Assembly: GCA_023920165.1 (NCBI GenBank)
Contig: CP089278.1
Location: 3,100,001 to 3,164,000 of the forward strand
Direction: 5' to 3'
Length of the DNA: 64,000 bases
DNA from: Curvularia clavata
Lineage: Eukaryota
A program made the position numbers and the translations under genes. The first letter of the stretch is position 1. Each line of letters begins with the position of its first letter. Below are positions 5,591 through 57,480 of this stretch, one piece after another. Below the pieces are notes generated by a model. The model did no database searches. It worked only from the letters and a program-made list of their open reading frames with translations, and had not been told where the DNA came from.

Positions 5591-7167
5591 ATGGTTGGGA
5601 TTCCAGGTCGATCTAAAGGGTGTGTGACATGCAGAAAAAGGAAGAAAGGCGTAAGTCGAAGCCGCCCTAGTAGATGGTCTAACGCAGTGCAAAGCTGATG
5701 TACCCGCTGTAGTGTGATCAGGTCCAGCCCGAGTGCGGCCAATGTAAAGAACGCGGGATAAAATGTGGAGGCTACGACTCAGATCGCATCTTCATCTACC
5801 AGAATGGCGGGTCAAACCGGCCCGTACCGAAAGAAGCCCAATATGCGACCACTAAGACATCTCCAAACCAGCCATCTCGTCAGAACTGGCAGATGGCGTA
5901 CAAGCCCGCGTTTGCTCTACAACGACGCGATCCGCTTCTCACCCCTGTCAACATTGAACTTCCGAATGGACTTGCAAAATCTGCGTACACCGAGAAGACT
6001 ATTGCAGCTTTCCTGGAAATGTACAGTCCTGCAGGAACGGCCCATGCCCAAAACGTCTACGCAAAGGAACTAGCTACCTTATTGCCTTTGTTGAATTTGC
6101 GTGATGAAGCACTACAGGCAGCCACTCTAGCTGTTGGTATAACGCAACTGGGGATAACTACGGAAAACAAAGCCCTTACTAGACAGGGAAGAGTTTTGTA
6201 CGGCAAGGCGCTGAAAGAAACAGCATTGGCGCTGCGAAATCCTTCAAGAGCAAACAGTGAACCATTGCTTGCTGTACCACGTGTCATGGCACTTTTCGAT
6301 ATGCTGTTTGGCGCAGAGCCTAACTCTTACAACCAAGCAAAGAGTTGGCTGAGTCATGCGGAAGGCGAGTTAGCCATGATACTCAGCCGTGGGCCAGAAG
6401 CTTTTGCGTCAGATGAAACAACACACGCATTGTTCACTAACGCCCGATCCCGATTGCTGTGGCCTGCTATACGTGATCGGAAACCGACTATACTAAACAC
6501 AGAAGAATGGATGACACTGCCCTGGAAAGGGAGAACCAAAACATCAGAAGATCTCCTCATGGATATATTCTGCGGCATACCTGAGCTACTGGAAGCTACT
6601 GATAGACTCCAGTATGATCCTATGGACGATCTAGAGAGGGAAACACTTCGCGCGTACGCCTTGTCAAAGTGCTGGACATTGCATTCTCTTCTTGCCGACT
6701 GGACACAAGCGAATACCATGTGTACACCTGAAATAACCGACCCGTCCACAAAAGTCACTTTTCCGGACATTGACAATGCTTGCATCACTGTCCGATACTG
6801 GCTCGTTGCTCTCTTCCTCTATTCCTCTTTTGACATCGCTTCCGGCGTCGATATTTCCACTGACTACTCTCTCACACGTCCCGACCGCCCTCACCCTCGT
6901 CCATTTGCACGGATGATTGTGTGTTCAACGGACTACCTTTTACAGGAGCAATTTGGAATTACAGGTCTTCTGACTATTTGGTTTCCATTGGGCAACACAC
7001 TATTTTACATGAACCGCAATCGAGATGCAGACGAAGAGTACATCTTGGAGGTCATGAAGCTCTGGTGTCGGCCCAAGCTACCTAGCGTGATGAGGGAATT
7101 TCTGAAGAGTTTTCGGCTGACGGTTGACATGTATACATTGTCGGCCACTCCTCTCCGTGAGCTTTGA
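5591..7167 (+). CDS. Zn(II)2Cys6 transcription factor
   Basis: MVGIPGRSKGCVTCRKRKKG, then intron 5651-5712, then CDQVQPECGQCKERGIKCGGY; in frame with ORF 5893-7167 (fungal TF middle domain). Confidence 0.9.
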
Positions 7168-9647: not shown

Positions 9648-9699
9648 CTAATTATTCCTCTGGCTCTTTTGCTTCTTCGCCTTCTGTTGTTGTTGTCCT

Positions 9700-9743
<44 letters not shown>

Positions 9744-12700
9744 CTGTTTCTTTTTCTTGTTTCCTTTCCCACCCTCTCCATCGCTCTCACTAGCTCTCTT
9801 GCCACTACTCTTCGTATCGCTCATTCCGTCCGCTCCATCATCAGCCTCCTCCTCTTTAAGCAGCAGCATGTTCAGTGCTTCGTTGAAGTGCGACAACTCG
9901 CATATTTCGCCAATCTTGACGCGCATGTAGTCGAACGCGATAGCCACCTTCAAATCTTTATTTCGAATCTTGATCACACGCTCATTTTCGCCTAGAGATG
10001 AGGGCTGGTGCTGCAAGGTTGGAACTGGCTTTGCTGCGTCGCGGGCTGGAGCGAACGAAGGATGGATATCCACGTTGTCCGCGTTTTCGATGGTAGGGTC
10101 TACTTCTTCCTCATCGGCAACATCTTCAGCAACCTTGGCGGGATCAAGTAGTGGGTCTTCTTGCTCGCCGTCTGTGACTGTCTGAAGGACGGGAATCTTT
10201 TGGTATCGTTGGCTGAAATGCGTGAGTACGACAGCTTTGGCGTTCATCTGAGCACCGACGCCGAGAGCTTCAGAGGTAGTTGAATGCTTTTTCGCTTTGG
10301 CGTCGCCCTGTAGCGCGTCATCAAATGTAGCCTCGTGAATGAGCACAGTGGTATCTGTGCCAATCTTCGAGAAATGAAAGCTTGGCCTGCAGTCACCCGA
10401 ATAGCTGACTTTGAGCGGCTTGACGCCTTCCGGATCTGAAGGTGATCGAGGGAAAGTGATTGAAACGGCCATGGCTCCGTGGCAATGCGCTACCCTTGCA
10501 GTCTGAATATCTTCGAAACCAAAGAGCATCTCGTATGCCTTTCTGTTAATATCTGGATTTTCGGTGCTGTCCTTGCCGAAAGTGTTGTTGATCGAGAGTC
10601 GCGAAGAACTGCGATGTTCATTGGGAGTGATTTGTAGTGGTAGGATGCGACTATATCCGAAATCCTCAATTGCAGAGTACTCATTAAGCCACTGAAGCAT
10701 GCCGTTATGCGAGATGACAGAAAGACCGTAAGCACTGGTATCAATGCCCGCCACAGTGCTGCCCAGGGGTTGCGGGTTTGGCACACTGTTGTGCACTACT
10801 TGGTACCAGGCCCGAATCACGGCAGCTGTACCCAAGTGATGATCAGCATGCAAGTGGCTAATCCAGATTACCCTCAGGTTTTGGAGGACATCAATTAATT
10901 CTTCGTGGGTAAACACTCTTGCAAGTTGTCCTAAAGTGTTCTCGCCAGCGTCGAAGAGATAGTTGCCAATGCCTGGAACGCGAACGAGAGTCGCAGAAAC
11001 GTTGCGGTACTTTGATGGCAGAGCAGAACCCGTACCAAGTGTGATAACTTCAGTATCTGGACGTGCCAATAGCTTCCTCCACTCGTTCATCTCGCCGCGA
11101 TTAAGATCCAGTGCATACTGAGCCTTCTGTGCGAGCTGGAGTACCTCAGGCGCTGTATCTCGTCGTGCCACTTCTTCGTCGAATTTTTGTGAGATCAACT
11201 CCTTCTTCATCATGAACTTCGGCATGAGTGTAAAGGTCAGCCCTCGATCGGCAGCAATGGTGCCATCTGGCAGCACAGATGACGCCGATTGGTCAGCTCT
11301 GTATATGCTCTTCTGAGGCACACTAGTACCATCGGACACAGGTGTAGAGTATCTGGCAGGATCTACTAGTCCCAGACGCGTCGCTTGGGTAGCAACTGAG
11401 TCGTTGGTGATACGGTTCGGCGCAGTATCTATGGAGGATATGACATGTTCCACGTTGCTCAATCTCTTCATGAATTCTGTCAAAGTGGGGTGGCCTGCTA
11501 CCCCAGGGCCAAGCATCCAAACTATGGCACCAATACCGTCCATGACTTCTGGAGAATTGAGCTCCTCTCGCTGGACGAGGTTTTCAACATAATTAACGGA
11601 AGGCACATCCAGGATGGCAATTCCTTGACCAGGACGGTCAGGGCCCATAACCTGATCCGGTGTGATCCACTCCCCGTCACTATTCTGGACCGATTTGCCT
11701 CTTGTAAGCTGACCAAATTGCGGTCCTGGCTTGATCCCAAGTGCTTTTGCGCGCTCAACGTCAAATTGTCCACGGGTTGGGTGCGTTCGCATAATATACG
11801 AAACGCATTCTTGAGCAGGCTTAGTTGGTGGGAGAGCCAGAATCATCGCACCAGGCCAGGGTGTGCGGGTCCAGACGGTCATGTCAGGAAGAGGATCTGG
11901 GCCACCTGGTTTTGGGCCATTGTAGGGCTCGTAGCCATGTGTTTCTGGGTTTCGAACAAACATGGCGGCAGGCATTTCCACCTCCGAGATGTGTCGCTCT
12001 ACAAGCGTGTCGAAGCTCCAGTTGGAATCGAACATGGACTTGATAGTAGCGGTCCGTATCTGGTCGTACCTGAGCTCACGTGCTTCTGGGCTTTCGTTCT
12101 CTGGAGCCTGGAAGTCCTGGAAGGTGTTCAGATGCGTGTCAAAATGTCGTCGCCGTTGCTCCAATTCGGCATCAGCTAGAGCATCTAATTTGGATCCGGT
12201 AGGAGAGACGGACATGGCCCAGATGTTGATATTATGGTCTGTCCAGGTAGGAGGTATGGCGCCGTTTTCGTCTTTGACGGGCTGCTGGTTTTTGTATTCA
12301 GTAGCAACAATCGGTATACCTTTTCGAAAGATGAACCTCCGGCAGGTTCCTAGAGTATGCTTCAAGTTGGGAGGGCCGTATACATCAAAGTGTGGCTTGG
12401 GCGGTGCTTCAACCTTCTTTCCTCGCTTTTGGGCCAGTTGGAAGGTCTCCATGGATGTAGTGTAAGAGCTTGTGCTTGCGTCGGCCAAGGTAAGCATCAT
12501 GCCTATGAGGCCGCCCATATTTCTCCACTCGGTTCTTCCGGTCAAGAAGAAATCCTGTGCCTTCAACAGACGCGTCCCCTGCTGCACCATTGCACGCTGC
12601 GTACCTTCAGCCATGCTGCCAAAGACATAGTGCCTGTTAGGTGTGCGCACCACAAGCGCAGTGCCTGGGCTGTCCGCCGTAGGCGTGGTGATGATTTCAA

Positions 12701-13028
12701 CGCTACAAGACATGTGTGTTGATTCCCTGTTCAGCCTGCTTCTACCTGAATGCGCTGTGACTTTTGCATACAATAGTTCGGATGACTTGGAGCGTGGTAG
12801 GAGGAGAGGCTGGCATCGAGTTTGCCCCCGGCGTAGGCTGTATGATGTCAAGAAACGGGCATGGATTGTAGCAGTCGCAACACGACCAATAGCGCCTATT
12901 CTAGAAGCCAATTTGGCGGTGTTCGAAGTCAGCACGATGAGGCGGCATGTAAAAGCATCAGCATGGCGAACTTTCAGTCGCGTGTCCAAAAGTAGAGTAA
13001 TGGCAGAACTCTTGGCAAAAGCGCGCAT
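9648..13028 (-). CDS. TRZ1: tRNase Z, long form (ELAC2/Trz1 metallo-beta-lactamase)
   Basis: TLGTGSALPSKYRNVS, HLHADHHLG, YSGDCRP, LIHEATF, KHSTT and LTHFSQRY motifs, plus the GP-rich exosite. Conserved domain starts at ATG 12713; upstream in-frame ATG at 13028. Confidence 0.95.
9705..9740 (-). repeat. (CAG)12 coding microsatellite, polyQ tract in the tRNase Z C-terminus
   Basis: 12 perfect CTG on the + strand plus 2 TTG, encoding Q14 next to KKKKQK. Confidence 0.95.
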
Positions 13029-13245
13029 CACTTTTTTTTTCGCGATGCGTCAATGGTTCGTGGTAGGGTTGGGTCCGTGCGGGCAAGGCTGAGTGGCCTC
13101 GTTCCTCAACCTGAATTTTGACCAGTCCAGTCACCTCGCTTCTCTATTCAGAAAGCGTCATGCTTTGGGTATCGTTTTGCATTATGAAATAACTAATCAT
13201 CCACACCGTTCAGCCATGGCTCTGCGCCAACTTCGTCACTAGACA

Positions 13246-15193: not shown

Positions 15194-16345
15194 CTATTGC
15201 GTACGCTGGTAGACACCCACAACCATGGCGTGGTCACGCTCGAAGGGCTCGAGGGTAAGCTGCTCCTTGGGCTTGATGCCCATCTCTCGTAGCTTAGCGA
15301 CTTCCTGTGCGAAAACGGCTTCGGGAGCGGCGGTTGAGTCGATACAGTTGGCCTTGATGGAGATGACGACACCACCACCAACCTTCAAGAACATGCCGGC
15401 GTTAAGACCGACGATACGCGCTTGATCAGGCTGAGCAACATCGGCGAAGATGCAGTCAACCATTCCCAGAAGCATCCTGTATTTCGATGGGTGCCTGGCG
15501 TCCTCAACGATAGGGATAACGTTGGTGCGGTGGGTGGCCATGTTGATCAGATCACGGCCGGAGCGGTGGGAGAATTCGACGGCGAAGACAGTTCCCTCTG
15601 GGCCGACGATATCAGCAACGTGAGAAACTGATGTACCGGAGGCAGCACCAAGGTAAAGAACCTTGGAGCCAGGGCCCATATAGATGTTGTCCACACCACC
15701 CAAGATACCAGCGGCCAACTTGGAACGGAAGGGGTTCCAGACACGGTACTCGGTGCTGCTGGCCTCAGTCTCGCCATCCTTTGCGGCGCTGGCGCCAACA
15801 CTGATGCGCTTCTCTCCGTAGACGGATTCACCGGGTGTCAAGTTCTTGGTAACAAGGAGATCTTCCTTGCCGCGAGCGACGAAGACACCAGCATGGCGAT
15901 GGCTGATTCACAGTTAGCAAAAGTTTTAATCCAGGTAGAGGCTTAACTTACGGCTCAACAATGACCTTTGCTCCACCGCGCGCGCCTCCGCGACCGCCGC
16001 CGCGAGGAGCACCACGGCCTCGAGGAGCACCACGGCCTCCACCACGGCCACCACCACGGCCGCCACGGTCACCACCGCCACGACCGCCACCACGTCCGCC
16101 TCGGGGAGTGAAGCCGCCGCGACCGCCACGGTCACCACCACCACGTCCACCGCCACGACCGCCTCTGAAGATGTGTTAGTAAAGATTTTCTTCGGGTACT
16201 TTAGTGCCTCATGAATTGAGCAAAAAAGTCGAGATGAAAAGGTTTCCATCCCGTCATTCTTTGGTCAACACATCGCATAAGCAGCAATTTCTGCTTCGCG
16301 ATAGAAGCTCGAATGTTGAGAGCCGTACCTGGGAGTGAAGGCCAT
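15194..16345 (-). CDS. NOP1: fibrillarin, rRNA 2'-O-methyltransferase, 3 exons
   Basis: MAFTPR, intron 16165-16328, RGG/GAR domain, intron 15903-15951, then [37 protein letters not shown]. Confidence 0.97.
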
Positions 16346-26517: not shown

Positions 26518-27950
26518 CTATCCAGCTTCACCTGTTAACATGACCGTGCCAAAGATGTGCGGCGACTCGTTTCTCTTGTTCTTTCCTAGCCACTTGACAA
26601 TTGAATTCCAATCAGCATCCAAACTATCCTCGTCAAGGAAAAGCTCGTATGATTTCTCGTCGGACGCTTCCTCACTCTCTTTGAGAAGAATACTCGTCAT
26701 CGTTCGGTCCCATAACTTTTTGCGCTTCTCAGCTTGGATTCGAAAGTCCTCAAAGAAAACCTGCCCGGGCGCGTCTGGGCGCAACCATACACCAAAACGT
26801 TTCTCGCCCCATTCGATTGCTATGCGGAGCTTGTCGGAGGGTACGTCTGGCCGGGTTTCAGAGACTGCACTCGTGGAGGCAGCGGTTGCAACGGTGGCAC
26901 GGTACAGGTTAGGTTGCGAGGTTTCGTGTTGCGTTGGTTGTGAGCCAAGAAATGCGTTTGACGGCATGTTTTGCGGGTAGTGATGGCTTTCCATTGGCCC
27001 ACCAGAAGCTGACGGTGCAAAATTCATGGTTTCTGGTATTATCGGGATATGGTTGTTGTGCCGTGTTTGATACTGTGTTCGTAGCGAATCATTGTTTGTG
27101 TCGGCGGAACGATGGAACGATCCTAGAGGCGGCGATCGACCTGAAGGTTGCAGTCCTGAATTGTATCCCTGAAAGGGACTAGGCTCAGGATGCAGTGGTG
27201 GAACATCGGGAGCGGGATATTCTGAAGAAATTGGAGCGTTGATCAGCACAGTAAAATAGCAGTGTTCGCCAAACACTGTGCGTACGCACCTACACCAGTA
27301 TCGATGTGACTAAGGATGATATCATCATCGAGTGCTTCATCGGAAACTACGCAGAATTCGGTTCTATGTGTTCTGCCAGACTTTGGACGACGCCAGGTCA
27401 GTTCTACTAAGCAATGATATGGAACAGCAATGGTTGTTCTTGTGTCCGCATTCCCAGGTATATGGACTTCCCCCCCTTCTCTCGAGACTGTATTGGCATC
27501 GATCTCGTCCTCGGATAATAGGTTATGGCGGATGACGCTGTGGGTGGTTATTGGTGCGATTTTCATATGGACGGGTTGCTCCTTAACACCATCTTCGGTA
27601 TTTTTCAACAGATAGATGTACTGTTTATGGCCACTGCTACCTTTTGTCGAATCTGACCTTGGGGTCCTCGCAGGGCTAAGAGGATACGCTGATGGCGGGC
27701 GCTGTGTAGTTTCCCGTTGGTGAATATGGGAACCAGAATGATGCGACTCGTGCAGAGAGGGTGCCACAGAGGATCCGAATGATCCTCTTCCTGCTGGCTG
27801 ATGCGGCGACGCGCCCGGTTTCGGGATAAAGTAAAAGATTTTATCGCAAACTTCCTGATACTTGCAACACTCAGCGAGGATGTCCTGGACTTTCTCCTGG
27901 TCGTATTCGAACAGTTGCGCGACTATTGCGCGTGCCTTGCCGTACTCCAT
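26518..27950 (-). CDS. retropepsin-like pseudo-protease with P/S/Q-rich linker and putative PB1/ubiquitin-like C-terminal domain (about 454 aa)
   Basis: The two overlapping ORFs join in frame through intron 27222-27289 (GTGCGT..GCTGAT..CAG). VHMKIAPITTHSVIRHNLL, VELTW, TEFCVV and DDIILS follow the retropepsin pattern but lack DTG. Confidence 0.65.
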
Positions 27951-28544
27951 TCCCTGTGGTCAAGGCAGACTGGAGCCGCATGTGTGCCTGACGCTTACCG
28001 GTATCAGCGTTGCACAACCGAAGTCCGGATATGCTGTGAGGGGCAGCGCGAACCGAGGCGCATTCAATCAACATGGCTCATACTTGTCGCCTGAAGGGGT
28101 AAGAACAATGAGATGCGCGAGGCGCAATGCGCGCGAAACAGAGGCCGCTGGCGATGCAGAAGACGATGAGGCGCAGATGGGAAGGGCGGCCGTGATGAAA
28201 GTGGGGTCCATCGATTTCTCATACCAACATGGCGTTCGCAACCACGCCTTTCCCTGATGATTTGACCGGAAACGCCCATGTTCGCACCATCTCTGACAGG
28301 ACTGGCTGGCTCATACGCCACATGCAACCGGCAAGGCAGATACTACTAGCATATCACACCCCCCCGCTCGGCTGCTCAGGCCCTCAAGCGCTCAGTACCG
28401 ATCGCACCCCCGTCCATTCAGGCCTGGGCAGTTCAAGACTCTTGGGCATCCTGCCCGCATGTGCTTCTCGCCATCTCGGGCATGCATCCCACTATGTCTG
28501 CGACGTCTGCCTCCAGCCGCTGCTCCAACGACAAGAGAGCGACC

Positions 28545-29255
28545 ATGATGGCTACATCAGTGAGCCGAAACATTTCTAGCGGCAATGCCGTCCAGATTAA
28601 TGGTCCGGTAGCAGACAAAGTCTGTAATCTTCACTTGTAAGTTCTGATCCAACTTCAAAAACCAAGGCGTTGCTGATGTATCCAAGTCAAAACCTAATCG
28701 TCAGTTGCCAGTGCATCTCGGTCACCAAGTTAGTCACTTCGGCGAAAGCACCAGCAACTTCGAGTACTCCAATATTAGAGCCACCGACTTCCTTGAGTGT
28801 GAAACAGGTTCCATCTGTGGTGCAAGTCGTTGACCAACCGGTCACAGCCTTGCTGGTGAGTGCAACTTACCACAACATACCGTATAACAGGTACTCATGG
28901 TATGCAGGAGAGCGCCTCAAACAAAGCAGACTTTCGTCAAGAGAATCTGGTTTTCACTTCTCGGCTGCGTAAGATACGTCAAGTTGTTCGCGCCATATTT
29001 CGACCTGATCTACCCATCAGCTTCATTGACCGCCGGATAGTAAAACGACTTGAATTAGTGACGCATCACTACAACCGGAATGGAAAGGAGATCTCAATGA
29101 ATCAATCAAAAACACCATACATGACAGACTACGTTGACCTTCCTTGCTGCCCAAGCAAGGGTGGTAAATGCGTCATACATCGATTTTACGTCGTCAAAGA
29201 GTGCCCTTTCGACCTCGTATTCGGCGCCAATTCGATAGACCCCCACCATTCATAA
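28545..29255 (+). CDS. small protein with N-terminal amyloid-like motif and C-terminal retropepsin-like pseudo-protease (about 202 aa, 3 exons)
   Basis: Exons 28545-28636, 28687-28855 and 28908-29255 splice in frame (GTAAGT..AAG, GTGAGT..CAG). Starts MMATSVSRNISSGNAVQINGPV; later VRAIFRPDLPISFIDRRIVKRL, YVDL, HRFYVV, PFDLVFG. Confidence 0.75.
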
Positions 29256-29652
29256 TCCGCAGAAGACGATGACTCGACGCGGTTGGACTGCATGAATTCA
29301 AGACGAAAGGTATATCTTGACTCGCGTCAAGCCAGTCAGCCCTGGATTGCGTTTATCGGGATCTGCTGCTTCCCATTGGGTGCCGGCAACGATGCGAACG
29401 TGGGGTACTTGTGGTGTGCAGCTGCAGCTGCAGGGCGCTTCACGATGGCGAATCAGTGGTTGAAACCACCAATACTGCTGGTTTGTCACTGGACAACCAC
29501 CAGATGTAATGGCTGCATAATTAATACTGCGCCGAGCGTGGCTCTGCTTTGCTCGGCTGGTCATAAATACGCTATTGTATCAGCTCAACTGCCGGTGCAA
29601 CTTCGTTTCCATCTGTATCTTGATTCAAGCCAACTGTCGCACGATCTTCAAT

Positions 29653-30621
29653 ATGGTAAGTTGAATAAGCAGATTGGGAAAAATTTGAGCTTACGTGGTC
29701 CTAGGTTGACCCCATCAGCCTCGTCTCTGCAATCCAAGCTAGTACTCAACTCATGGAGCAAGCCTTTCGGATTCTAAAACGTCTTCGCACGGCGTATGAG
29801 CGACAGAAAGATGTTGTCGACGTGTTGAATCGACACGAAACTGAACTGTCTGGTGTCAAAACCATCATTGGTATAATCGAAGATGAGGATGGGTTGCGAA
29901 CTCCAAGCATCGCTATGGAATTGGGTCGGTTACAGGTTGTCCAAACAAAATTGGCTAAATTGCTTCATGATCTGGATCCACAGGGGAAGGGAAAAGTAAG
30001 CCAGTATACACGGCAATTGATACATGGCTCAGAAGATGAACGGAAACTGTGCGTGATCATGACTGAACTGGCGCATGTCAAGTCAACACTTCTCGTTTGC
30101 ATTCAAGTTGCCAATATTCGAGAGATGGGCAACAGGTTCGAGGCCAATGCAGAAGCCATCCAGCGCATCGACCAAATCCTTCGAGAAAACTGCGAGGGTC
30201 TACAAATTGCACGCTTACTAAAAGGCAGACGCCCGTCAAGTAAGTGTTCCATATTTCCAGATTTGCTAAAACGTTACTTACGAAATTAGATGACGGATAC
30301 GTGCCACTGACTCGGGCTGAGCTGAAGTCCCTTGAAAATGACGCAAGCAATAGCGAATGCAGCGAAGACGAGACTTTGGTTGACGAGTCTGAAGAGAAAC
30401 AGCCAAATGGTATCTTTAAAACTGAGCGTATTTTGTCAAACAACGAATCGCACGATGAGTCTGTTCAGATTAACGGTCCAGTGGAAAAGGACCTTTGGAA
30501 ACACATCAGCCGACTGGAGATAAAAGACAATCACTCTAAAGACAAGAGTCTCCAATTCAACTACGCCATGCCTCTCAATGTGGTCTTGGCCCTTCTTAAG
30601 AATAGGCGGGATGGATCATAA
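29653..30621 (+). CDS. HeLo-like/SesA-type helical effector with C-terminal two-repeat amyloid-like domain (about 289 aa, 3 exons)
   Basis: ATG, intron 29656-29704, VDPISLVSAIQASTQL amphipathic N-terminal helix and helical bundle, intron 30240-30289, acidic linker, repeats at 30436-30483 and 30523-30570. Confidence 0.8.
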
Positions 30622-30978
30622 GGGAACAAACCAGGAAATTGAGTCCATGTCAGGAACACGCTGTCAGGGTCGTGTGTAGGTAGCAATCTTGAGTCGCTGT
30701 TGTATGAGATCTTTTGTCGCTTTCAGTAGTATGATTGAATGAGATGATTCTATGTCCAAAATGCCGTTGCCACCACGTAGTGACACGAAGATGAGGACTG
30801 ATGTGGTGAATGTCAGAGTACACATGCGGTTGGAAGACAAAGGCTTGAGATCCACATCTGACTCAGGCGTCTTATCGATAACGACCACGTTGCACGCTTC
30901 AACCGCGTCCCGTATCCAGCCCTCGGATGCACCACCAATATGTGAAGCCACGCGCCCACATTACGCGTTGCGCAAAAC

Positions 30979-31701
30979 ATGTACCACCTTTTCAAGTCTA
31001 TATACCTCCATGCAACGAGCAAAGAAGGCACGATTCTTTTCTCCCAGACATGCCGAAACGCCGCCTAACTATGTCTAGAATACTCTGTTCTCCTCCTCGG
31101 CCTCGATAATGCCGGCAAAACAACTCTCCTCGAGCAAATAAAAGGCACATACACCTCTGCGAACGCGAACCTCAGGACAGTCCCAACAGTTGGACAAAAT
31201 GTCGCTACCATTGCGCTTCCGCCGCCAAACCCTCCGATCTATCTTAAGATATGGGATGTCGGAGGCCAACATAGCCTGCGCGGTCTTTGGCAATCCTACT
31301 ACAGCAGTTGCCACGCCATTGTATTCGTCATAGATAGCAGCGACGTCGGGAATGCGACGCTGGCGGATCTGAGCGCGAGCAATGCAGCGAACAACGAGGA
31401 TATAGGCAGGCTGGATGAGTGTAAGCTAGTACTCGAGAGTGTGCTGGCGAATGAAGAGGCTAGCGGTGTGCCCATTCTCATCTTGGCGAATAAGCAAGAC
31501 AGAGAAGATTGCGTCGAGGTTGTTAGGATCAAGGAGGGGTTTGTCAGGAGAGTGTTTGAGGGTGAGAAGGGCGGCAACATGAGAGATAGCAGAGTGTTGC
31601 CTTGTAGTGCGCTTACAGGCACCGGTGTGCAAGAGGCTGTCGAATGGTTGTGCAGCAGGATGGCTTTCAACAAAGAGGCACGGCCGCCGGTTATGCGGTA
31701 G
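30979..31701 (+). CDS. ARL3: ARF-like small GTPase Arl3/ARFRP1
   Basis: MYHLFKSIYLHATSKE, GC-AG intron 31028-31078, then EYSVLLLGLDNAGKTT, PTVGQN, WDVGGQ, LANKQD, CSAL. Confidence 0.93.
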
Positions 31702-55456: not shown

Positions 55457-57480
55457 TTAGACACCCGCACTCTGAACATCCGCTTGTTCGCCATTGACAG
55501 CAGCCTCCAGCTTATCGACAATAGTACTTCCATTCGCTTTTTCCTTATTCGTTGGACTCGACTCGGGGCTAGGAATCTCCAGAGTGTTTGATCGCTTGGG
55601 ACGGAAGGGGATAGGTGTGGTTGGTCTTGACGACAGGAACTACCATATATTAGCATGCTTCTCGCAAACAAAGAATCCATTCAGAAAACTCACCGAAGAA
55701 GCAGCACTCAGCATGGCAATCAGAGATGCTTGGACCACATCTTGGTGGATGCCCACACCCCAGACCTTCTGAGAGCTTCCAGCAGCAGTACAACCTATGT
55801 AAGTCGCTGCTTTAGCGTCCTTGCTGGTACCAATCGTGTGCTCGTTGTAGTCTACAACGTCTAGGTCGATGCCCAGACTCCTCAGCGCATCAGCCAGGGA
55901 TGACAGGGCACCGTTTCCCGATCCCCGGATTCTGTGCTCTTGGCCATCGATCTCAATGACACCAGTGAAGATACGGCGAAGATTGCTGTTGCTGGCCGTC
56001 TTGCCGTCTTGTGGAGGCTGAGGTGTGGCTGAGCGATCTGCCTTGATCTCGTAGTCGATGAGAGAGAAACGAGGGTTGCGCTTCAGGTGGTATGCCTCTT
56101 CGAAGAGGACTGTGATTTCGCTGGGCAGGAGTTCGCGGCCAAGCATGTCCGTCTCTTTTTGGACAATCTTGGAAAAGGCAATTTGCAGACCACGCGGCAA
56201 GTCGAGTTCGAGCTGGCGCTGAATGATCCAGGCAATGCCTCCCTTTCCGCTTTGCGAGTTGACACGGATGATGGCTTCGTATGTGCGACCAATGTCTTGC
56301 GGGTCGAGAGGAAGGTATGGAATCTGCCATCGGCTCTCGTTTGTTGCACCGTTCTTCTGGCGCAACTGGAAACCCTTCTTGATTGCGTCCTGATGTGAGC
56401 CACTGAAGGCGCATACGACGAGCTGGCCACCATAAGGCGCGCGGGGATGGACTGGAATCTTGTTGCAGCTCTCAACCATGTCGATGACCGACTTGAGGTC
56501 AGAGAAGTCAATCTTGGGGTGAATGCCCTGAGTGTACAGGTTCAGGCCCAGGGTCACGAGGTCAACATTTCCAGTGCGCTCTCCATTTCCAAACAGCGTT
56601 CCTTCTACACGGTCTGCGCCTGCCATCTGAGCCAACTCCGCAGCCGCCACGGCGCAACCTCGGTCGTTGTGTGGGTGCAGCGACACGCAAATCTTTTCCC
56701 TCTCGCTAATGTTCTTGCAAAAATATTCAATCTGGTCGGCGTACACGTTGGGCGTAGACATCTCGACAGTGGCTGGCAAGTTGAAGATGATTGGGTTCTC
56801 GACAGAAGGCTCCCATGCTGCCTTGACTGCCTCGCAGACCTGGATGACGAACTCTGGTGACGAGTCTGAGAAGGTCTCTGGCGAGAACTCATAAGACCAG
56901 TGGGTACCGGCCTGCTCTGGGTCATCCTTTGTTATTGACCGCGCATACTTTGTGCATTCGACAGCAAGAGCAAGCGTCTCCTCGTTGTTCATGTTGAAGA
57001 CAATCTGCTGGAAGCAGGGGCTGGTCGCAAGGTACAGGTGGAGAATGGCTTTGCGCGCACCCTTGAGGGAGTCGACGGTTCGGCGGATGAGCTCCTTGCG
57101 ACACGGCGAGAGGACTTGTATAGCGACATCGTCTGGTATTACACCGGGCGTTTGGATGAGGCGTTGTGTAAAGTCAAAGTCAGTCTGCGACGCCGAGGGG
57201 AACGAAACCTCAATTTCTTTGTAACCAAGCTTGACGAGCATTTGGAAGTAGTCCCATTTTTGGGCGCCATCCTAGGGCCTGCGTTAGTGTACAGTCACGC
57301 AGCAGTGATATGTCGGTAGTAACACACCATGGGGTCGACTAGACTCTGGTTACCATCTCGCAGATCCGTCGACAGCCAGCGCGGTGGCTTGTCAATGGTC
57401 TTGTTTGGCCATGTCCTGTCTGGCAGATGCAATGGCTTGAAAGGCTGGTATTTCTTCCAAGGCTCTGCAAGCATCGGCAT
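55457..57480 (-). CDS. LEU4: 2-isopropylmalate synthase
   Basis: [63 protein letters not shown]. Last exon after an intron near 55640-55693. Confidence 0.96.

Follow-up and report, generated by a model that had tools for sequence, protein, structure and literature searches.

Among fungal amyloid signaling systems, those of the NWD2/HET-S type have a layout in which the upstream partner carries a motif at its N-terminus and the effector carries two pseudo-repeats of it at its C-terminus (PMC5485727, PMC4518210). The HRAM motif is a 21-residue repeat with a conserved Gly at position 19 and Asn, Gln or His at position 3 (PMC4518210), and the PP and RHIM motifs are built on a GxQxG segment centered on a conserved Gln (PMC5485727). 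The fungal systems in the portions of PMC5485727, PMC9815663 and PMC12881547 drawn on here are all based on NOD-like receptors (NLRs). Here, we describe three genes of Curvularia clavata, termed A, B and C, in a 64,000-nucleotide stretch of contig CP089278.1 (assembly GCA_023920165.1, forward-strand positions 3,100,001 to 3,164,000; hereafter the window, with coordinates counted from its first letter). Genes A and B share a short motif in the arrangement of an NWD2/HET-S pair, and the reading that we favor, with moderate confidence, is that of a conserved fungal (Pleosporales-type) cluster that acts in the manner of NWD2/HET-S, the place of the sensor being taken by a non-NLR protein. An earlier note on this DNA, made from its letters alone, had proposed an amyloid signaling pair with a non-NLR trigger; of that proposal, the layout, the splicing, the conservation of the upstream motif, the adjacency of the genes and the lack of NLR domains in the motif carrier hold; co-variation of the motifs, which it had suggested as a check, was not found, and the label given to the effector is plausible and not demonstrated. 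The three copies of the motif are as follows.

28563-28610, + strand: R0, the single N-terminal motif, SRNISSGNAVQINGPV, residues 7-22 of gene A
30436-30483, + strand: R1, the first C-terminal pseudo-repeat of gene B, SNNESHDESVQINGPV
30523-30570, + strand: R2, the second C-terminal pseudo-repeat of gene B, KDNHSKDKSLQFNYAM

Re-derived from the window, these positions agree to the letter with those of the earlier note, as do the offset of 87 nt (29 residues) from the start of R1 to the start of R2, both at the C-terminus of gene B, and the arrangement of one N-terminal copy in the upstream gene and two C-terminal copies in the downstream gene. R0, R1 and R2 fall into a single 21-residue register consisting of a hydrophobic start, an invariant Asn and then [AS]-h-Q-h-N. 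Of the 16 residues, R0 and R1 have 10 in common. With every 16-mer of the six-frame translation of the whole 64-kb window as background, the best match to R1 after R0 is a single 16-mer at 7/16, and the best match to R0 after R1 reaches 8/16. The VQINGPV stretch common to R0 and R1 is written in codons that differ at synonymous sites, and the likeness is therefore held at the protein level rather than left by a recent copy of the DNA.

As fungal DNA, the window has short introns of the GT..AG kind, and models of genes A and B were obtained by enumerating such introns. Transcript evidence came from contigs of four public runs (X1, X9, X11 and X24) aligned to 27900-31100, where X1 represents a relative 95-99% alike to the window and X11 is a metatranscriptome. 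These contigs show presence and splicing, not expression levels or transcript ends, and because their depths are those of contigs, they were not used to rank expression. The two genes are built as follows.

28545-28636, 28687-28855 and 28908-29255, + strand: gene A, 202 aa in three exons
28545-28636, + strand: gene A exon 1, 92 nt, encoding the N-terminus including R0; joint 28636>28687 in X24 (side 101) and X1 (depth 2)
28637-28686, + strand: gene A intron 1, 50 nt, GT..AG, from the X24 and X1 joints
28687-28855, + strand: gene A exon 2, encoding the QNLIVSCQC stretch after R0 and a variable linker
28856-28907, + strand: gene A intron 2, 52 nt, GT..AG; joint 28854>28907 (cut +1) in X1 and X24
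28908-29255, + strand: gene A exon 3, encoding the putative retropepsin-like domain (about residues 88-197) and the stop codon
29434-29652, + strand: 5' untranslated region of gene B, at least this long, X24 record 12 beginning at 29434
29653-29655 (ATG), 29705-30239 and 30290-30621, + strand: gene B coding sequence, 289 aa, with introns at 29656-29704 and 30240-30289
30622-30761, + strand: 3' untranslated region of gene B, with a loose A-tail behind 30761 in X11

The RNA contigs bear out the spliced models that the earlier note had drawn for both genes, including the short first exon carrying R0, which is transcribed and spliced as modeled in X24 and X1. Record 11 of X24 (615 nt), which begins at 28536, 9 nt 5' of the gene A ATG, aligns to 28536-28636, 28687-28854 and 28907-29224 and so represents gene A spliced per the model; X1 also contains an unspliced piece beside its 28636>28687 joint. 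Intron 1 of gene B is removed in X9, X11 and X24, and its intron 2 in X11 and X24. In the public databases, the same region appears as a fusion: P0131 (NCBI, 643 aa, named Curvularia clavata) consists, letter for letter, of residues 1-131 of gene A, residues 1-265 of gene B and 206 residues of the downstream Arf-like GTPase, covering 28545-31701 of the window, and P0130 (Alternaria postmessia, 400 aa) joins the N-terminus of gene A to gene B. The RNA contigs support genes A and B as separate, and P0131 is a mis-fused gene model. One further transcript over gene B deserves mention. A 2001-nt contig of X1 spanning 28687-30803 skips 30218-30281, whose CT..AC ends are those of a GT..AG intron on the minus strand, and the same contig retains gene B intron 1 and lacks gene A intron 2. 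Such a structure points to antisense or read-through transcription across gene B in that relative, or to two strands merged into one contig.

The pair is kept well beyond Curvularia. Scanning metagenome contigs with an alignment of gene B gave 15 loci (L001-L015), of which 12 (L001-L006, L008-L012 and L015) have an R0-like motif on the strand of R1, about 1.9 kb upstream of it. The end point of the first exon of gene A is identical in all 12. With tblastn, a gene A ortholog was recovered in 13 of the 15; at L014 the contig ends and holds the gene A C-terminus only, and L007 and L013 have less than 200 nt of upstream flank. The earlier note had named loss of R0 from orthologs and of linkage between the genes as results that would speak against it; R0 is conserved and the two genes are adjacent on the same strand in 12/15 loci, the remaining three being short of flank. 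When near-duplicates are collapsed, about nine lineages remain including the window, and R0 matches that of the window at 10 to 21 of 21 positions across the eight others. The C-terminal domain of gene A, by contrast, is only 30-42% identical in the orthologs of 10 loci (P0015, a near-identical 95-aa fragment, stands at 93%), which speaks for selection on R0, and the linker of gene A is not alignable between orthologs. In the ortholog at L011, this linker contains a seven-fold tandem repeat of six residues (HKTLNA; locus positions 6944-7060).

The carrier of R0 is not an NLR by any domain that we could find. The Pfam scan of the 202-aa gene A gave no domain at all, and the earlier description of a carrier without NACHT, NB-ARC or repeat domain accordingly stands. 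That note had overlooked the C-terminal half of gene A, which looks like a diverged retropepsin-like fold without the catalytic Asp, on three independent and individually weak lines of comparison. The top match of the gene A domain in a profile search of the Protein Data Bank (PDB) is the retropepsin domain of Ddi1-like proteins (5ys4, 5yq8), at E 0.054 and colinear over profile positions 27-113 of 114, and with a 112-row profile DDI2 and DDI1 are the sole PDB matches, at E 1.2 and 1.6. Among 20 family members, six have sub-threshold Pfam matches to gag-asp_proteas, RVP_2 or Asp_protease_2 (best 5.9e-4). In the ESM Atlas, the feature neighbors of the domain are retropepsin clusters at 0.93-0.95. 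At the site where retropepsins have Asp-Thr/Ser-Gly, gene A has Arg-Pro-Asp; over 112 aligned rows, the first residue of this site is Arg in 34 and Asp in 26, and Asp-Thr-Gly occurs in 2 only (P0119 and P0129), both distant relatives. From its sequence, the gene A domain is thus best read as a pseudo-protease.

A profile of the C-terminal 114 residues of gene A retrieved 115 representatives at E<=1e-3 from 1.84 billion proteins, 64 of them at E<=1e-10, and removal of four internally repetitive proteins (P0086, P0115, P0120 and P0128) left a family of 111. Nearly all are of 60-290 aa (three are longer, the maximum being 410 aa), with the domain at or near the C-terminus. An R0-like motif lies within the first ~90 residues of 25 of the 111, and of 22 of the 32 that are at least 195 aa long; many of the short entries are open reading frame (ORF) calls that lack the short first exon, as in P0021 and P0022, which are identical to the ORFs of L006 and L015 with that exon missing. 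The members that bear a name are from Pyrenophora, Neocucurbitaria, Parastagonospora, Bimuria, Aaosphaeria, Eremomyces and Coniochaeta, all labeled "hypothetical", and the architecture of R0 plus retropepsin-like domain is kept across orders. The stretch directly after R0 (28611-28720, ADKVCNLHF / QNLIVSCQC, over the junction of exons 1 and 2) is also conserved, appearing in orthologs as KIYNLNF.NLVI.CQC, and may form a further structured element in the N-terminal module.

Gene B has the features of a helical effector with a motif-bearing tail. Its N-terminal ~175 aa are helical and are followed by an acidic linker and then R1-R2, and an AlphaFold2 model of the N-terminal domain consists of three long helices (predicted local distance difference test [pLDDT] 78). 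A search with the second exon (178 aa) gave 14 homologs at E<=1e-3, of 56-65% identity, including proteins named Pyrenophora teres, Neodidymelliopsis and Stagonosporopsis. Across gene B and four full-length homologs, both repeats have an invariant Asn/Gln/Asn, to which R2 adds an invariant Ala, and the Asn/Gln/Asn of both repeats is invariant across the metagenome loci as well. The earlier label of a "HeLo/SesA-like effector" fared less evenly. In its favor, the ESM Atlas feature neighbors of the N-terminal domain are PigL_N and SesA clusters at 0.94-0.96, with 185-197 of 256 features in common; against it, the sole Pfam match, to PigL_N (PF17111, formerly Helo_like_N), is sub-threshold (E 0.078, 12.8 bits vs a cut-off of 27.2) and was obtained with 1 of 13 family members. 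In a profile search of the PDB with the alignment of this domain (A2), no hit was better than E 0.4, and the gene B tail matched no Pfam family. On sequence comparison, a HeLo/SesA-like N-terminal domain is plausible, its membership in that group not being demonstrated.

A third gene, missed by the earlier note, is part of the same unit as judged from its conserved neighborhood.

26518-27950, - strand: gene C, about 430-454 aa, with one intron near 27222-27295 (approximate borders)
27951-28544, no strand: divergent upstream region common to genes C and A, between both genes

Gene C is transcribed divergently from gene A, and X24 record 10 (27900-28187) covers its 5' part. Orthologs of gene C adjoin gene A in all six long loci (L001, L002, L006, L008, L010 and L011), and synteny between the window and these loci is confined to genes C, A and B. 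The protein has a conserved N-terminal part of ~55 aa, a middle domain and a conserved C-terminal domain of ~100 aa; it has no Pfam match and no copy of the motif. With hhalign, the 112-row family alignment of gene A (A6) matched gene C (A4) at a probability of 68.8% and E 4.5e-5 over 108 columns, and a small gene A alignment matched it at a probability of 4% and E 0.0099. The middle domain of gene C is therefore probably related to the C-terminal domain of gene A, and it too is without the catalytic Asp. The C-terminal ~100 aa of gene C (26518-26830, - strand) contain invariant W, F, K-R, L-D, A-D-W and P-H and match no Pfam family.

We infer amyloid formation, templating, dimer-driven nucleation, cell death and a role for gene C along the following lines. 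Gene B would be a helical, putatively membrane-attacking cell-death protein of the PigL_N/SesA type. When molecules of gene A are brought together, their R0 segments would stack into a cross-beta nucleus; this nucleus would template R1-R2 of gene B into the same fold, and templating would in turn release or activate the helical domain of gene B. Because retropepsin folds are obligate dimers, two R0 segments would probably meet through self-association of the gene A domain. Gene C, with its related dead domain and no motif, may keep gene A as a heterodimer with one R0 until a signal removes gene C. More tentatively, and with some doubt on our own part, the cluster may be the first fungal amyloid signalosome with a non-NLR trigger, in which a domesticated, dead protease fold of retroelement type serves as the oligomerization or sensing module, the gene C paralog acts as a brake, and the three genes move through the Pleosporales as a unit; on this view, the pseudo-protease could sense, by heterodimerizing, a peptide ligand or the active retropepsin of a retroelement or virus. 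Literature searches on amyloid signaling with a retropepsin, aspartyl protease or Ddi1, on NLR-independent amyloid signaling and on the locus tags of the family did not find this architecture, in a coverage that left aside the supplementary motif lists of PMC9815663 and PMC4518210, which could contain the motif. Whatever the mechanism, a pair that is both conserved and expressed has a 200-aa protein other than an NLR where the receptor would stand, a role is proposed for ~111 "hypothetical" fungal proteins, and a public three-gene fusion model is corrected. The system is small and readily testable, with a pair of short peptides, a pair of small genes and perhaps a regulator as third component.

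Several observations weigh against the NWD2/HET-S-like reading. The motif does not have the HRAM signature, its conserved Asn standing only 8 residues before the Gln. R2 is weak on its own, with 4/16 identity to R0 and 6/16 to R1, and does not rise above the background of the window, where three 16-mers match it at 6 (R1 included) and two further ones at 7; the case for R2 is made by its conservation in homologs, its core N..(7)..Q.N being invariant in four full-length homologs aligned with the window protein. Lineage-specific co-variation of R0 with its partners, which the earlier note had suggested as a check, was not found. In the 21-residue register over nine lineages (L005 and L010 dropped as near-duplicates), identity of R0 to R1 was 6.9 in cis and 7.0 in trans, and that of R0 to R2 was 4.4 and 4.5 (of 21), in a comparison that has little power because R0 is almost invariant. 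None of the 13 family members scanned brought the gene B N-terminal domain to the Pfam gathering score for PigL_N or SesA (PF17107), and Foldseek of its model against the PDB gave nothing at E<=0.001. Every retropepsin assignment of the gene A domain falls below curated thresholds, and its AlphaFold2 model from 12 sequences is poor (pLDDT 53). A wide search with VIA-align on this pLDDT-53 model was uninformative, the best hit being the UBL domain of Ddi2 at Z 4.2 with other beta-grasp folds near. Prediction of a complex of two gene A C-terminal domains scored 0.01 in a run that did not use the alignment, which speaks neither for nor against dimerization. A constitutive dimer domain would moreover fire constantly unless regulated, and the regulator proposed above is a guess. 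Finally, a gene for an NTPase of the NPHP3_N type lies 2.5-4 kb upstream of gene A in three of the six long loci.

L008 4152-6344, L010 4413-6566 and L011 1710-3839, + strand: NPHP3_N-type NTPase gene, multi-exon, with a degenerate Walker A and without C-terminal repeats

This last gene bears on the alternative that the cluster is an ordinary NLR-driven amyloid system, in which the trigger is an NLR with the same motif, either unlinked or lost from the cluster, and gene A serves as a modulator (a fibril cap or inhibitor, an adaptor or a second client). The accounts in PMC5485727, PMC9815663 and PMC12881547, so far as they are used here, give it precedent, since their fungal systems are NLR-based; a small constitutive dimer would be an odd sensor; and the NTPase gene stands near the trio in half of the long loci. 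We nevertheless consider this alternative unlikely. The motif of gene A is N-terminal, as in a sensor, whereas the clients described in the portion of PMC5485727 consulted carry it C-terminally, and the architecture of R0 plus retropepsin-like domain is itself conserved across orders. As a cognate sensor, the NPHP3_N-type NTPase was rejected: its N-terminus is without an R0-like motif, and neither the window nor L001, L002 or L006 has the gene. The domain scan of the six long loci covered 58 of 97 ORFs of at least 150 aa, the 39 omitted being trio ORFs, nested or opposite ORFs and short end pieces. Among 45 window ORFs of at least 160 aa, there was no match to NACHT, NB-ARC, NPHP3_N, WD40, ANK or TPR at E<=1e-4. 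A word search for proteins of at least 379 aa with an R0 region yielded six candidates and two matches, the mis-fused P0131 and P0130, and no NLR, which is weak evidence of absence.

The motif might instead be a linear peptide that fits the groove of a dead retropepsin-like domain and not an amyloid segment at all. R0 would then be an auto-inhibitory pseudo-substrate acting in cis or trans, gene B would dock through R1 and R2, and gene A (and gene C) would hold or release the effector by binding of peptide to domain, as a relic of a protease-substrate pair like those of fungal gasdermin/protease clusters. The peptides that retropepsins bind are extended and about 8 residues long, the enzymes excise themselves at flanking sites, the domain of gene A is retropepsin-like, and a near-invariant R0 without co-variation would suit a fixed binding groove. 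Fungal clusters of two or three genes with a protease and a pore-former are also described, in the portion of PMC12881547 used here. Against this stand the replacement of the catalytic Asp in gene A and most of its family (DTG in 2 of 112 rows), and an Asn/Gln-rich core with tandem C-terminal copies at a fixed 29-residue spacing and a single N-terminal copy, which as described in PMC4518210 are hallmarks of amyloid pairs and not of docking motifs; we judge such a peptide-binding arrangement to be quite improbable. The resemblance could in principle also be devoid of function, a chance match or the leftover of a local duplication among poorly conserved orphan genes, as might be suspected of a gene A that has no Pfam domain and had a single close match in the first protein search, and of an R2 that alone is not above background. 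Yet R0 and R1 agree at 10/16 where the window runner-up to R1 reaches 7, the DNA of VQINGPV differs at synonymous sites, motifs, gene order and strand are kept in 12/15 loci, and both genes are expressed and spliced. A resemblance without function is thus already contradicted by the conservation data, and we give it hardly any credence. The NWD2/HET-S-like reading is the one that we retain.

The surroundings of the trio in the window are unremarkable.

9651-13049, - strand: tRNase Z
15197-15907, - strand: fibrillarin
31069-31701, + strand: Arf-like GTPase
55643-57271, - strand: isopropylmalate synthase

With such housekeeping neighbors, the cluster therefore lies in an ordinary gene-dense region and not in a repeat-rich or NLR-rich island.

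The repeat period of HET-s is about 36 residues, and that of gene B, at 29 residues, is shorter. In other respects, the locus resembles NWD2/HET-S of Podospora anserina and the HRAM pairs, as those are described in the parts of PMC4344463 and PMC4518210 relied on here, in having adjacent genes, a helical effector and a core of Asn plus h-Q-h in each repeat. Unlike NWD2, gene A is no NLR and is without NACHT, NB-ARC, WD, ANK and TPR domains; judged by its sequence, it does not supply the NLR that an upstream partner in an NWD2/HET-S-type pair would bring. In contrast to HRAM, the spacing from Asn to Gln is shorter here and no conserved Gly corresponds to position 19: behind Q-h-N, R0 and the R1 of the window have Gly, but in the other lineages R1 has Ala there and R2 has Tyr or His. 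In HRAM systems, r0 clusters with the r1/r2 cognate to it, whereas partner-specific co-variation of that kind was not seen here.

As in the PP (HELLP/SBP/PNT1) and sigma (SesA/SesB/Het-eN) systems, at least in the portion of PMC5485727 cited here, an amyloid-type motif is common to neighboring genes, and the effector here is plausibly of the HeLo-like or SesA kind found there. The core of R0, G-N-A-V-Q-I-N-G, is pseudo-palindromic around the Gln, as in PP. The GxQxG of PP and RHIM is absent from R0, R1 and R2, whose core is [AS]-h-Q-h-N with Asn flanking h-Q-h. PP occurs in a single copy and not in two, and the PP and sigma clusters include an NLR and a lipase (PMC5485727, as far as drawn on here), whereas the present cluster has two putative retropepsin-like pseudo-protease proteins, encoded by genes A and C. 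To the retropepsins of Ddi1 and of retrotransposons (PDB 5ys4, 5yq8, 4rgh and 3s8i; Pfam RVP_2, gag-asp_proteas and Asp_protease_2), the gene A domain is linked by its best matches, which are colinear and sub-threshold; unlike Ddi1-type retropepsins, gene A is without the catalytic Asp-Ser/Thr-Gly and without UBL or UBA, and has an amyloid-type motif fused N-terminally.

Amyloid signaling among proteins other than NLRs is familiar from the animal RHIM proteins (RIPK1, RIPK3, ZBP1 and TRIF), which signal through a short core of the h-Q-h-G type. These proteins, which are mentioned in the part of PMC12881547 consulted, are built on kinase or nucleic-acid-sensor scaffolds and are without the adjacent-gene layout or a two-repeat effector tail. 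A closer parallel in arrangement is Bab/Agp, an antiphage system of E. coli (bioRxiv 10.1101/2024.11.07.622273), where, as described in the cited part of that preprint, the genes are likewise adjacent, the N-terminal motif is carried by a non-NLR partner and the C-terminal motif by a small helical killer. Unlike the cluster described here, Bab/Agp is bacterial, has its motif (BASS11) in a single copy and, going by the same part of the preprint, is without a retropepsin-like domain. Bab/Agp is thus a precedent for an amyloid trigger other than an NLR, and if the reading favored here is true, the amyloid relay would be, in fungi as in bacteria, a portable module that can be driven by other sensing or oligomerizing domains.

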